Notes under the pieces: model-generated
Databases searched by the model: none
Seen by the model: only the letters and a program-made list of their open reading frames with translations
What the model was told of the DNA's origin: nothing
Shown here: positions 40,092-48,240 of the stretch, piece by piece
How positions within the stretch are numbered: the stretch's first letter is position 1
Layout: each line of letters begins with the position of its first letter
NCBI GenBank assembly: GCA_040217195.1
Contig: JAVJNR010000007.1
Span: 72,424 to 136,423, forward strand
Length of the DNA stretch: 64,000 nt
Source of the DNA: Leptospiraceae bacterium
GTDB taxonomy: Bacteria; Spirochaetota; Leptospiria; Leptospirales; Leptonemataceae
Direction of reading: 5' to 3'
Position numbers and translations under genes: made by a program

Positions 40092-40120
40092 TTGCCACTA
40101 CAAAAATAAAGATATAGCCT
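40092..40120 (+). promoter_or_regulatory. Putative sigma70 promoter of the P-II-led cluster
   Basis: TTGCCA-17bp-TAGCCT with A/T-rich upstream tract. Confidence 0.5.
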
Positions 40121-40156
40121 ACTGAGTATCCCTCACTTCGCGTGCCGGAGGCCCGC

Positions 40157-40501
40157 ATGAAAAAAATCGAAGCAATCATTAAGCCGTTCAAACTGGAACC
40201 GGTTAAAGAGGCGCTGGTTCGAGCCGGTATACATGGAATGACCATCCAGGAGGTCAAAGGCTTTGGACGGCAAAAGGGGCATCAGGAAGTCTTCCGTGGC
40301 GCCGAATACACTGTGGATTTTTTACCCAAGGTTCTGATCAGCATTATAGTTGAAGATAATCTTGTGGATGATATTCTGGAAGTGGTACTGGAAGAAGGCA
40401 GGACGGGAAACATTGGTGATGGTAAGATAATAGTCACCGACGTAGAACAAATTGTCAGAATCCGCACCGGAGAACGAGGAGAAGCAGCCGTAAAGAGTTA
40501 G
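40157..40501 (+). CDS. glnB: P-II nitrogen regulatory protein (GlnB/GlnK)
   Basis: [21 protein letters not shown]-loop RGAEY, TG.IGDGKI, RIRTGE; GGAGG SD. Confidence 0.95.
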
Positions 40502-40502
40502 A

Positions 40503-41099
40503 GTGAGTTTCCTAAAGACTACAGCCATTACCTTTGTACTGATCCTATTTTCTGCACCTGTACTCGCAGAGGAGCTGACGCAGCGATCGAATAGTCCTGA
40601 CATTATTCTTTCCAGTGGTCTCAGCGGAAAGACGCCTACAACTCGTGAAGGCTATTTCACTCTCAAATGGGAACTTCCGGAAGATTTTCAGTTAGTAGGG
40701 CCCGGCCAGGCCACCTCCCCGGACAGACTCGTTCTACTGGAGTCCACCCAACCGAATCTAGAAGATCCTGTGATTTTTCACGATGATCAGGATATGTCTG
40801 TAGCGATGAGTGGTAAGACCGATGGAGATCTATATTATCGGATTTTTCTTCTTCGCAAGGGGGATTCGCTAAATCAGGGTGGTGCAACCGCTTCTAATTG
40901 GAGCGCAGACGTTAACCGGGCTCTTTCGCAGTATGAAGGTTACACTTTAATCAGTGCATCGAACACCTACCATGTAAAGGTAGAACACTATTCCCTCCAG
41001 ACGGCTTTTCTTTATTTTGGAATTGGAGCCTTCCTGTTTATCATCACAACTGCAGTGATCATTGTGGGCACTTATAAAAACAAAGAGGAGGAGCAATGA
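40503..41099 (+). CDS. Hypothetical exported protein with C-terminal TM anchor
   Basis: Signal peptide (VLA-EE), beta-rich FN3-like pattern (L.W...G..DG..YYR), C-terminal TM; tightly spaced with both neighbours. Confidence 0.7.
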   Translation: MSFLKTTAITFVLILFSAPVLAEELTQRSNSPDIILSSGLSGKTPTTREGYFTLKWELPEDFQLVGPGQATSPDRLVLLESTQPNLEDPVIFHDDQDMSVAMSGKTDGDLYYRIFLLRKGDSLNQGGATASNWSADVNRALSQYEGYTLISASNTYHVKVEHYSLQTAFLYFGIGAFLFIITTAVIIVGTYKNKEEEQ

Positions 41100-45296: not shown

Positions 45297-45320
45297 TCAG
45301 GTTTTTACCAAAGAAGAATT

Positions 45321-46094
45321 ATGACGAAACATACTCACGAATCAACAAATGAACAGCTGGAAGAAGTCATCCAGGACCTGGATCCAGAATACATTGATGT
45401 AGATCCGCTCAAAAAGAGCTACACTCAGTCCATCATTCAAAACGAGGAGCGTTATGAATCTCTACAGCAGCATAACACTGCCTTGATGGTAATCGATATG
45501 CAATATCTGGATGCGGCCCAGGGATATGGAGTATTCTCCGATCCAGCAAAAAGCGGAGTGGCGCCAGAAGCACAGGAATATTACTTCTCAACATTGGAAA
45601 ACATTGTCATTCCTAACGTACAGAGATTGCTTCGCACTTTTCGCTCAAGAGGATTTGAAATAATCCATACAAGGATCATGTCCCTTACGAAAGATGGTCG
45701 TGATCGAAGTCCGGGCCACAAAAGGCTAAAGCTTCATGCCGCACCAGGGTCCAAGGAAGCGGAATTCCTGGATGAAGTAAAACCAGAAGGCGATGAGATC
45801 GTTCTTAATAAAACTGCAAGTGGCTGCTTCACATCCACGAATATCAATTATCTTTTGAAGAATCTGGATATTCATGGTCTTTTTGTTACTGGTGTATACA
45901 CCAATGAATGTGTTTCTACAACGGTTAGAGATGCAAGCGACCTGGGGTACCTGGTTACCTTGATCAGCGATGCCTGTACCACAGTAACCCAGGAATTGCA
46001 GGATTCTACAGTATTCACTTTGCAGGATCGCTACGCACGAGTCATAGATACAGATACGGCCATTCAGGAAATTGAGCAATACGCTTCCAGGTAG
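45321..46094 (+). CDS. Cysteine hydrolase (isochorismatase-like amidase)
   Basis: Asp-Lys-Cys triad: VIDMQ, LNKTASG.F, GVYTNECV. Confidence 0.9.
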   Translation: MTKHTHESTNEQLEEVIQDLDPEYIDVDPLKKSYTQSIIQNEERYESLQQHNTALMVIDMQYLDAAQGYGVFSDPAKSGVAPEAQEYYFSTLENIVIPNVQRLLRTFRSRGFEIIHTRIMSLTKDGRDRSPGHKRLKLHAAPGSKEAEFLDEVKPEGDEIVLNKTASGCFTSTNINYLLKNLDIHGLFVTGVYTNECVSTTVRDASDLGYLVTLISDACTTVTQELQDSTVFTLQDRYARVIDTDTAIQEIEQYASR

Positions 46095-46212
46095 GCCACA
46101 GGCTCATTGCTACTTAGAACAGGATGCACTTTACCATAGGATATCCTGAGTCAGGACCGCCAGGTCCTCCAGCATCCAGTACTCAGGGATGCAATAAAAT
46201 TAGGAGAATATT

Positions 46213-48240
46213 ATGTGTGGAATTTCGGGAATCATGAATCTGGACCCGGCAAGGCCAATAAGCCCGGCTACGCTTGTGAATATGGCTGCCATCCAGTACC
46301 ATCGCGGTCCGGATGACTATGGCTGGAAAACTATAGAAGGTCGAGGCGTCGGTATGAGCCATGCCAGACTTTCAATCATTGATTTGCATGAATCAGGACG
46401 ACAGCCATTCTGGTCGGACGATGAAAATCTTCTGATGGCCCATAATGGTGAATTCTATGATTACAAACGAATTCGCACGGATCTCACAGCCCGAGGATAC
46501 AATTTTCGCACAAAGAGCGACTCCGAAATTGTAATGAACTTATATCCTGATAAAGGATTTGAACCGTTGCTGAAAGATCTTCGCGGTGAGTTTGGCTTTT
46601 CTTTATATGATAAGAAGCTGGACCGTCTGTACCTGGTTCGAGATCGATTCGGAATAAAGCCACTGTACTGGATAAACACAGGAAAATCGTTTGTCTTTGG
46701 CTCAGAAATAAAGTCCATCCTGGCCAATCCGGAGGTTCCCAGAGAGTTCTACGCAGAGGGTGTTTTTCATCAGTTGATGCAAACAATTGTTCCCGGCAGT
46801 ACTCCATTCAAAGGAATCAATCAGGTGAAACCCGGACATTATCTGATTGTAGAACGACGGGACGGAGCATTTCATATTCGAGAAACTGCTTACTGGGACA
46901 TGGATTTTCCAGAGCTGGGGCAGCGAAATGATGACGTACCCGAAGCAGAGACTATAGAAAAGATTCGCGAGCTTCTGATTGAAGCAGTACAACACAGATT
47001 GGAGGCCGATGTTCCTGTGGGCTGCTATCTGTCAGGAGGTATCGACTCCTGTTCCATCCTTGGCCTGGCCGCTGCTTCCAGGCAGGATGCAGTTAAGGCA
47101 TTTACCATTGGATTTGATAATGATTCGTACGATGAAAGCGCCATCGCTGTGGAAATGGCCCGCTCGGTAGGGGCAGATCAGGATATACTGGAACTGGAAG
47201 CAGATCATCTTTATGATCATTTTGTAAAGACTCACTGGCATACAGAACGCACGATCTATAATACCCTGGGCGTGGCCAAATATCTGATGAGCAAGCACGT
47301 TCATGAAGCTGGCTACAGAGTTGTTGTAACCGGAGAAGGATCGGATGAACTTTTTGCCGGATATCCTTCCTTTCGCAGGGACATGTTCCTGCATGGTCTG
47401 GATCATCTTCCGGAAAGAGAAAGACTTCATCTTCAGGCCAAACTGAATGAAAGCAACGCTCTGGTAAAAGGTAGTATGCTGGCTGCCGAAGAGGTTGTGA
47501 GCCCTGAACTGAATCGTATTTGCGGATTCACGCCTTCCTGCTTACAGCCCTGGCTGGCCTGCGCCCCTGAAATTCCTGGTCTGCTGGCACCGGATATTCG
47601 AGAGCAGATGAAGAATTACGATCCGGGAGCAGCCATAGCAGCCCAGATCAATCCAGATATGGTTCGAAACAGGCATCCCCTGGATGTGGCCCAGTATGTA
47701 TGGATCAAAACTATGCTGGAAGGACAGATACTCACCTGGGGTGGAGACCGGGTAGATATGGCCAACTCCATGGAAGCTCGACCTGCCTTTCTAGATCATC
47801 ATCTTGCAGAAGCGGCAGTATGGGTACCTCCAGCCCATAGAATCAAGGGCGATAAAGAAAAATACGTTCTCCGTGAAGCCATGAAGGGGGTGCTACCAAA
47901 GGTTCTCTACGAACGACAGAAGTTTGCATTCATGGCCCCTCCGGCGCATACCGACCCCAAGAAACTAAAGGCTCTAAAAGATATGGCCGCAGACTTCCTC
48001 TCGGACGAAGCAATCGAGAAGTCCGGCTTTCTAGACAAACAGGGGATCAAGACACTATTCGAAAGATATGAAAGCTCCTCGACACCAGCGCATGAATTGG
48101 TGCAGCTAGATGCACTTGTAAACCATGTAATCGGAATTCAGGTGCTGCATCACAACTTTGTGCAGCAGGATATTCCGCGAGTGGCCAGAGAAACAGCTAA
48201 TCGTCTGGGATGGCATGCACCGGAAAGTAGCGGTTCTTAG
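46213..48240 (+). CDS. AsnB-family glutamine-dependent amidotransferase
   Basis: N-terminal MCG (Ntn), HRGPD, RDRFGIKPL, LSGGIDS, GEGSDELFAGY, EARPAFLDH; AGGAG SD. Confidence 0.92.
   Translation: MCGISGIMNLDPARPISPATLVNMAAIQYHRGPDDYGWKTIEGRGVGMSHARLSIIDLHESGRQPFWSDDENLLMAHNGEFYDYKRIRTDLTARGYNFRTKSDSEIVMNLYPDKGFEPLLKDLRGEFGFSLYDKKLDRLYLVRDRFGIKPLYWINTGKSFVFGSEIKSILANPEVPREFYAEGVFHQLMQTIVPGSTPFKGINQVKPGHYLIVERRDGAFHIRETAYWDMDFPELGQRNDDVPEAETIEKIRELLIEAVQHRLEADVPVGCYLSGGIDSCSILGLAAASRQDAVKAFTIGFDNDSYDESAIAVEMARSVGADQDILELEADHLYDHFVKTHWHTERTIYNTLGVAKYLMSKHVHEAGYRVVVTGEGSDELFAGYPSFRRDMFLHGLDHLPERERLHLQAKLNESNALVKGSMLAAEEVVSPELNRICGFTPSCLQPWLACAPEIPGLLAPDIREQMKNYDPGAAIAAQINPDMVRNRHPLDVAQYVWIKTMLEGQILTWGGDRVDMANSMEARPAFLDHHLAEAAVWVPPAHRIKGDKEKYVLREAMKGVLPKVLYERQKFAFMAPPAHTDPKKLKALKDMAADFLSDEAIEKSGFLDKQGIKTLFERYESSSTPAHELVQLDALVNHVIGIQVLHHNFVQQDIPRVARETANRLGWHAPESSGS

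Follow-up and report, generated by a model that had tools for sequence, protein, structure and literature searches.

N-carbamoyl-glutamine amide (CGA) is an osmolyte that was reportedly described in 1991 by Galinski and Oren. In the pathway of N-acetylglutaminylglutamine amide (NAGGN), an AsnB-like enzyme adds the amide. CGA has been reported from Ectothiorhodospira marismortui, that is, Ectothiorhodospira mobilis (PMC1224877), and strain DSM 4180 of E. mobilis appears as the type strain of E. marismortui in a table of PMC7824335. No assignment of genes to CGA was found in the literature, in a search that did not extend to the 1991 paper, to theses or to most subscription papers. Separately, a subgroup 3 of pseudo-aspartate transcarbamylases (pseudo-ATCases) was delineated by Barba et al. 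2013, with members from Rhodopirellula baltica, N. oceani, Synechococcus WH8102 and Kangiella (PMC4016543). Here we analyzed a 64,000-nucleotide stretch of a Leptospiraceae contig (JAVJNR010000007.1, positions 72,424 to 136,423; hereafter the window), in which eight co-oriented genes at 40092-48240, headed by a P-II signal protein, encode a transcarbamylase (TC) of this kind, an AsnB-like amidotransferase, a symporter and two hydrolases. Judging from the genes alone, we cautiously favor the reading that this operon makes, re-imports and recycles a CGA-type osmolyte. A link between a carbamoyl-amide solute and salt adaptation is, in our view, probable, and whether the product is exactly CGA seems to us evenly balanced.

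The TC gene (42908-44008, + strand) falls into the marine subgroup of pseudo-ATCases by its motifs, fold and tree position. Its model has the ATCase fold (pLDDT 87; TM-score of ~0.75 to PyrB). We compared it with the ATCase residues given in Table 1 of PMC4581275 and with alignments to true ATCases. The carbamoyl-phosphate site (SxRT, HPxQ and the equivalents of R105 and K84) is complete in 81 of 81 homologues, in all of which S94-T95-R96-T97, K125, R146, H174, Q177 and R215 are kept. The RxQxxER motif of the 240s loop, which PMC4581275 describes as shared by every known ATCase, is absent from all 81, R229-x-Q231 being replaced by S/A-I-A (N-S/A-I-A-W), and HPLP of ATCase has become HPLA. The window's enzyme reads HPLAR and YINSIAW, and those of two Kangiella loci (L078, L079) read HPLAR and YINAIAW; N278, M214 and W282 are invariant marks of the family (81/81). 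The TC scored below the TIGR00670 cut-off (201 vs 237), and its family stands apart from true ATCases in a tree of 55 rows. Since R215 and K125, the residues for the alpha-carboxylate, are kept and the cationic side-chain residues are lost, the TC probably binds carbamoyl phosphate together with an alpha-amino acid other than aspartate, the side chain of which is probably neutral. The small residues at the R229 and Q231 positions suggest a larger, rather than a smaller, side chain. The earlier note on this DNA had considered that the TC might be the genome's only pyrB; a true PyrB with an intact RIQEER motif is encoded elsewhere in the genome, as is ArgF.

Two side observations concern this enzyme family. 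Table 1 of PMC4016543 puts HPLA and AIA/SIA under group 1, whereas Kangiella, placed in group 3 by the text, has that set, and the group-1 enzyme has H(T/S)LP according to PMC4581275; the group labels of that table look swapped. In addition, a series of TC-family derivatives of 354-374 amino acids (P0011, P0014, P0015, P0017, P0018, P0019, P0021-P0024, P0027, P0032, P0041 and P0045) has lost STRT and mostly lost HPxQ/HPL while still carrying the source label ATCase. The four that were tested nest inside the TC family (100/100), and to go by their motifs these derivatives are probably catalytically dead.

The second enzyme is a glutamine- and ATP-dependent amidotransferase (46213-48240, + strand; GATase_7 and Asn_synthase domains), for which we propose amidation of the carbamoylated amino acid at its alpha-carboxyl group. 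C2, R31, N78-G79, D103, SGGIDS and E379 are kept in 67 of 67 homologues, and the glutaminase and ATP sites are intact. It failed the cut-offs for AsnB (NF006949, 268 vs 499) and for AsnO of NAGGN synthesis (TIGR03104, 295 vs 570), and exceeded that of the broad TIGR01536 (404 vs 267). The stretch aligned to T-T-I-R of E. coli AsnB, the arginine of which we take to have a role in aspartate activation, reads Y-N-T-L-G. This is the sole AsnB-family gene of the window's genome. It is not needed for asparagine supply, because GatB is present, no AsnRS exceeds its cut-off, and an AsnB-family match is missing from 18 of the 22 genomes of the window's family (42 genomes, 20 with the cluster and 22 without) that lack the cluster.

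We sought to establish how constant these genes are. In a scan of genome contigs, a TC relative was encoded in 382 stretches, and we kept the best 80 of these as loci. The AsnB-like gene is present in 72 of the 80, the symporter in 68, the M20 amidohydrolase in 67, the cysteine hydrolase (CysH) in 59 and a P-II gene in 18. The AsnB-like gene lies directly 3' of the TC gene in 60 of the 80. Seven of the eight loci without it end within ~1 kb, and the eighth is that of Thiorhodospira sibirica, in whose genome AsnB-like, CysH and symporter orthologues are scattered. Gene order differs among loci while membership stays, and the recurrence of the partners in most of the best 80 loci indicates that their grouping is not due to chance. 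Within the window's family, the TC and the symporter occur in an identical set of 20 of the 42 genomes, all 20 of which have an AsnB-family match, whereas a CysH orthologue was found in 14 of these 20 (and in 0 of the other 22). Four genomes that are each at least 93% complete (G408, G411, G430 and G431) have the symporter, TC and AsnB-like genes and no CysH orthologue, and M20 is also missing from the G411 and G430 loci. The core is thus TC, AsnB-like enzyme and symporter, that is, synthesis and uptake, with breakdown optional. CysH at 55% or more occurs in seven metagenome loci, each of which carries the TC and AsnB-like genes as well, and no genome among the 42 has the symporter or a CysH orthologue without the TC. 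The earlier note had made its interpretation depend on co-occurrence in other genomes, which proved to be wide; its idea of four enzymes forming a matched set that builds and breaks one metabolite gained support, except that the set is not obligatory, the hydrolases being dispensable. No TC copies were found on plasmids at E 1e-60, and the viral matches (best 80) showed 30-40% identity, which is what ordinary PyrB reaches, giving no indication of mobile copies. In nine Thioalkalivibrio loci (L033, L047, L050, L056, L060 and L065-L068) glnA, encoding glutamine synthetase, follows downstream at no more than 10 kb from the cluster.

CGA fits this core because its two caps correspond to the two reactions of the invariant TC/AsnB-like pair. 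The pseudo-ATCase would carbamoylate glutamine (or glutamate) at its alpha-amino group with carbamoyl phosphate as the donor, a type of transfer that is established for the family and an acceptor that we infer. The AsnB-like enzyme would then adenylate the alpha-carboxyl group and amidate it with ammonia from glutamine. Carbamate kinase, pyrC and pyrI are absent from the cluster, as the earlier note had stated, and no TIGR00746 (carbamate kinase) match was found in the genome, which is 93.7% complete. The lack of carbamate kinase, the intact glutaminase and ATP sites and the dispensable hydrolases all argue for the building direction.

The reported CGA producer provides a further line of evidence. 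Locus L030:4879-14152 belongs to E. mobilis DSM 4180 and has the order MarR-M20-CysH-TC-AsnB between genes for sucrose synthase (over its cut-off) and a PfkB kinase; sucrose synthase stands beside the cluster in 11 of the 80 loci. The E. mobilis genome (G001, completeness not stated) has three OTCace-family genes, namely TC, ArgF and PyrB, and no NodU/CmcH (PF02543) match. The other OTCace genes being ArgF and PyrB and NodU/CmcH being absent, the cluster TC is the only spare carbamoyltransferase of the CGA producer, a good argument by elimination, short of proof. Several points weigh against assigning CGA to these genes. Of 55 genomes from the order to which the producer belongs, 49 have the TC, so that its presence in the producer discriminates weakly, and E. 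mobilis carries four other AsnB-like genes. CGA has also been called a minor solute of one organism only (PMC3857566), which sits badly with genes found in hundreds of species (382 stretches). Overall, the candidacy of CGA, already raised in the earlier note, is strengthened by the TC/AsnB-like chemistry, the producer strain and the betaine link described below.

The link to salt comes from genes for betaine. On another contig, the window's genome encodes a glycine/sarcosine methyltransferase (over its cut-off) and, next to a BCCT transporter, a second methyltransferase. At G000:C1:275731-279259 (L135), a BCCT gene faces those for glycine/sarcosine and sarcosine/dimethylglycine methyltransferases, that is, de novo betaine synthesis in a leptospiral lineage. 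In the window's family, the betaine methyltransferase is found in 18 of 20 genomes with the TC and 4 of 22 without, the two TC genomes lacking it being 58% and 77% complete. Restricting the count to 26 good genomes gave 11/11 vs 3/15, and counting by genus gave 11/11 vs 3/10. BCCT followed the same pattern (15/20 vs 1/22), and in a phylum sample of 401 genomes the three with the TC were all among the seven with the methyltransferase. The strongest single sign of a salt connection, from one genome, is an operon in G411 (L132:5115-12709, G411:C3) that runs symporter, TC, AsnB-like, glycine/sarcosine methyltransferase, sarcosine/dimethylglycine methyltransferase and a PutP-like second symporter, with ATGA overlaps. 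Its TC is more divergent (43-47%), and the locus has neither P-II nor hydrolases. Ectoine synthase was detected in one of the 42 family genomes, one without the cluster. Among the best 80 GTDB loci, none has betaine methyltransferases nearby and three have BCCT nearby.

Nonetheless, a number of observations count against a salt-protective CGA. NqrA also tracks the cluster, albeit loosely (15/20 vs 7/22), and the co-occurrence counts were made among kin and are not independent, so that Fisher values computed from them are too strong; the cluster-free genomes are often smaller. Kangiella and Pleionea have the cluster and no betaine methyltransferase match. R. baltica carries the block (RB13301; PMC4016543), whereas a nuclear magnetic resonance survey of its solutes names only sucrose, glutamate, trehalose and mannosylglucosylglycerate (MGG; PMC3694870), and RB13301 is not among the entries listed in the salt up-shock supplements, in which a control locus is present (PMC2754498). 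In picocyanobacteria, the block is tied to nitrogen- and phosphorus-poor waters (Dore et al., 10.1101/2022.08.17.504260 / PMC10119275). Such evidence is compatible with a solute that is minor or conditional, with a function in nitrogen metabolism or with a different product.

The remaining genes of the cluster would serve uptake and recycling. The sodium:solute symporter (41096-42517, + strand; PF00474) belongs to the DUR3-like urea-transporter branch, with plant DUR3 as its best solved relative (E 3e-37), so that its description as urea-type in the earlier note holds. Import of urea for urease was ruled out, as no urease exceeds the cut-off in the genome. Directly after the symporter lies a gene with a ribosome site for a 40-residue single-helix membrane peptide ending in RIW (42523-42645, + strand), a homologue of which occupies this position in 66 of the 68 loci with the symporter upstream, making it a probable symporter partner. 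A 198-residue exported protein (40503-41099, + strand) has hydrophobic ends, a signal peptide and a C-terminal membrane anchor, and gave no Pfam or NCBIfam match. Atlas scores of 0.91 to unnamed clusters and 0.83 to Ig-like clusters provide a lead, and only that, towards a small beta-domain of Ig/FN3-like type. This anchored protein is probably a symporter accessory; in E. mobilis it forms, with symporter and peptide, a separate module away from the cluster. We had taken the Ectothiorhodospira loci without a symporter as an argument against import, and withdrew this when an orthologue (60-63%) was found elsewhere in five of five genomes. The three proteins might together recapture solute that has leaked or is present in the environment.

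For breakdown, the M20 amidohydrolase (44049-45296, + strand) is of the L-carbamoylase family, exceeding the TIGR01879 cut-off (394 vs 204), failing the ErtE equivalog (393 vs 520) and having the L-carbamoylase 3N5F as its best solved relative (E 4e-86). Its two-metal ligands and arginine (H84, D95, E129, E130, H193, H386 and R292) are kept in 65 of 65 homologues. The conserved arginine presumably binds a free alpha-carboxylate, which would be the reason for a separate amidase. This would be CysH (45321-46094, + strand; PF00857), an isochorismatase-family cysteine hydrolase and proposed C1-amidase, in which the D59-K164-C197 triad is kept in 58 of 58 homologues and whose nearest solved relatives, at low scores, are biuret, triuret-type, RutB and carbamoylsarcosine hydrolases. 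In the order we propose, CysH would strip the C1 amide to leave the carboxylate that M20 needs, and M20 would then release glutamine, CO2 and ammonia. In locus L121, the synthesis and uptake genes are divergent from those of the two hydrolases, a natural split between building and breaking.

The P-II gene (40157-40501, + strand; PF00543, E 4e-30) is the third P-II of the genome and has GGAGG upstream of its ATG, with an alternative GTG start at 40142. Its product has the T-loop Tyr51, K58, GDGK and RIRTGE of canonical P-II proteins, and scored below both NCBIfam equivalog cut-offs. The other two P-II genes lie elsewhere, one of them beside an Amt-like gene, and the cluster P-IIs are split from other P-IIs, including these two, by a 97/97 branch in a tree of 18 rows with three outgroups only. 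Of the 17 Leptospirales-clade loci in the best 80, 16 have P-II as the first gene of the operon (the 17th starts inside the next gene). P-II also heads four further Leptospirales loci outside the best 80; it is absent from the G411 locus. The other two P-II matches among the best 80 are genes of the usual GlnK-like kind that lie several kb downstream, and a close upstream MarR gene was found in 34 of the 80 loci, all gammaproteobacterial by title or tree. P-II at the operon head is thus an addition of the Leptospirales only. Residues specific to P-II-bearing loci are few in TC (7/366), symporter (2/473) and AsnB-like enzyme (6/675), and form no clear patch. Six of 15 cluster P-IIs (L009, L021, L053, L064, L069 and L134), which form one clade (96/94), have lost the effector motifs GxGxQ and RIRTGE and kept the RGxxYxVxF of the T-loop tip. 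On sequence grounds a dedicated role for the cluster P-II is likely, and its position suggests that in the Leptospirales it probably couples a four-nitrogen solute to nitrogen status.

The presence of P-II in each of the 16 Leptospirales loci of the best 80 that include upstream DNA, and in the four others, can also be read as a sign of a nitrogen store or shared currency. The same chemistry would then make the compound when nitrogen is plentiful, the compound would be imported and hydrolyzed when nitrogen is scarce, and salt protection would be secondary. A urea-type symporter, the enrichment of the picocyanobacterial block in nitrogen- and phosphorus-depleted waters and the lack of RB13301 among the listed salt-responsive R. 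baltica entries agree with this. Yet a store without its release enzymes would be odd, and CysH is missing from G408, G411, G430 and G431, with M20 also gone from the G411 and G430 loci. Furthermore, the coupling to betaine genes and to sucrose synthase, together with the betaine profile, points to salt, and six of the 15 cluster P-IIs have lost their effector motifs. We therefore regard a store as unlikely to be the primary function.

It is likewise doubtful that the same logic leads to another product, such as N-carbamoyl-asparagine (the AsnB-like enzyme making asparagine and the TC capping it), carbamoyl-glutamate amide or a ureide derived from glycine or sarcosine. The AsnB-like enzyme does pass TIGR01536 and the side chain of asparagine is neutral too, but Y-N-T-L-G stands in place of T-T-I-R. 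A glycine/sarcosine methyltransferase co-occurs with the cluster and carbamoylsarcosine hydrolase is among the distant structural relatives of CysH, but Kangiella and Pleionea lack a methyltransferase match, and the small residues at R229 and Q231 suggest a larger side chain. CGA being known from one organism only (PMC3857566) favors another product, whereas the lack of any other spare carbamoyltransferase in the CGA producer argues for CGA.

Pure scavenging, with the symporter importing a ureide and the hydrolases or a TC running in reverse degrading it, appears very unlikely. The symporter is as constant as the TC (20/20) and is kept even where it is unlinked (5/5 genomes), and UGTCase, a sister pseudo-ATCase, is catabolic (PMC4016543). 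However, there is no carbamate kinase match, the constant neighbor of the TC is an ATP-consuming amidotransferase (adjacent in 60/80), the hydrolases are the optional part, and none of the 42 genomes has the symporter or CysH without the TC, just as all seven metagenome CysH loci hold TC and AsnB-like genes. Finally, a second pyrB with a housekeeping asparagine synthetase, a role of the kind that Dore et al. (10.1101/2022.08.17.504260 / PMC10119275) suggested in picocyanobacteria and one in keeping with the ATCase fold and the ATCase-type labels of the best database matches, was rejected as hardly credible, given the loss of RxQxxER in 81/81, the true pyrB elsewhere, the lack of a nearby pyrC and an Asn-tRNA route via GatB that leaves the AsnB-like enzyme unneeded for asparagine.

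The eight genes named in the earlier note, with their families, are all present, intact and conserved, and their + strand open reading frames contain no internal stops. The intergenic gaps are 1, -4, 5, 262, 40, 24 and 118 nucleotides in gene order, the first four genes being packed tightly and separated from the four enzymes by the 262 nucleotides. This gap (42646-42907) contains a 44-residue open reading frame (42765-42899) without a family match, and may hold an internal promoter ahead of the TC gene; a scan of the cluster for promoters and terminators gave chance-level results. On the other side, a 369-residue open reading frame (48384-49493, - strand) converges on the AsnB-like gene. It has a signal-peptide-like start, a terminal Phe and no Pfam match, and looks like an outer-membrane protein. 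Recent transfer of the cluster was rejected, as its G+C content is 48.2% vs 48.6% for the genome and the Leptospirales TCs form one clade (100/99 in the 55-row tree). To go by relatives, the host belongs to the Leptospirales. Sequencing runs of the same sample carry the label marine metagenome, and two RNA assemblies from it have zero coverage of the cluster, which is uninformative on expression either way.

Should the CGA-type osmolyte reading be true, genes would be named for an osmolyte described in 1991, an orphan of 35 years that is now addressable with two enzymes. A TC subfamily that was uncharacterized in 2013 and is misread as pyrB in databases would gain a function, a likely common nitrogen-rich metabolite would be added to marine metabolomics, and the Leptospirales form would offer a possible new P-II target. 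At its widest, and here we speculate well beyond what we expect to hold, CGA, so far regarded as an oddity of a single purple sulfur bacterium, would occur widely in marine and soda-lake bacteria as a four-nitrogen solute, served by a synthase pair, a urea-type three-part importer and recycling enzymes of its own. In marine Leptospirales, a dedicated P-II would gate the pathway directly, as P-II does in arginine synthesis elsewhere, letting the cell choose whether its osmolyte is rich or poor in nitrogen, and the compound would be traded as an unseen part of dissolved organic nitrogen.

Compared with the described systems, the cluster is closest to subgroup 3 of Barba et al. The window's TC shares its motifs (STRT, HPTQ, HPLA and AIA/SIA, with AIS as a variant; PMC4016543) and its context, namely a Na+ symporter, an "asparaginase" (here an AsnB-like synthetase), an adjacent carbamoylase and a true pyrB elsewhere. 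That paper proposes no reaction for subgroup 3, and its section on the subgroup makes no mention of the peptide, the anchored protein, CysH or P-II. The asnB-pyrB2-pydC genes of marine picocyanobacteria (Dore et al.) are three travelling genes with the same annotations as in the window, a likeness by annotation; Dore et al. interpret them as perhaps providing an alternative route to pyrimidines rather than, as here, as an osmolyte pathway. PyrB has the fold and carbamoyl-phosphate site in common with the TC, which differs in its N-terminal extension of ~45 residues, HPLA for HPLP, the missing RxQxxER and the lack of pyrC/pyrI. UGTCase (Rxyl_2847) has likewise retained the equivalent of R167, and the side chain of its substrate is neutral; it is catabolic, has H(T/S)LP and lies beside carbamate kinase and allantoinase, whereas the TC has HPLA and none of these neighbors. 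The NAGGN (made by AsnO and Ngg) and CGA are both uncharged glutamine derivatives in which both charges are masked (PMC1224877), but the NAGGN cap is acetyl and that proposed here carbamoyl, and the window has no Ngg neighbor, fails the AsnO model, and has its own symporter and two hydrolases. As a correction to the earlier note, the block itself has already been published, with its function undemonstrated, as pseudo-ATCase subgroup 3 and as asnB-pyrB2-pydC; to it we add the P-II-led form and the link to betaine.

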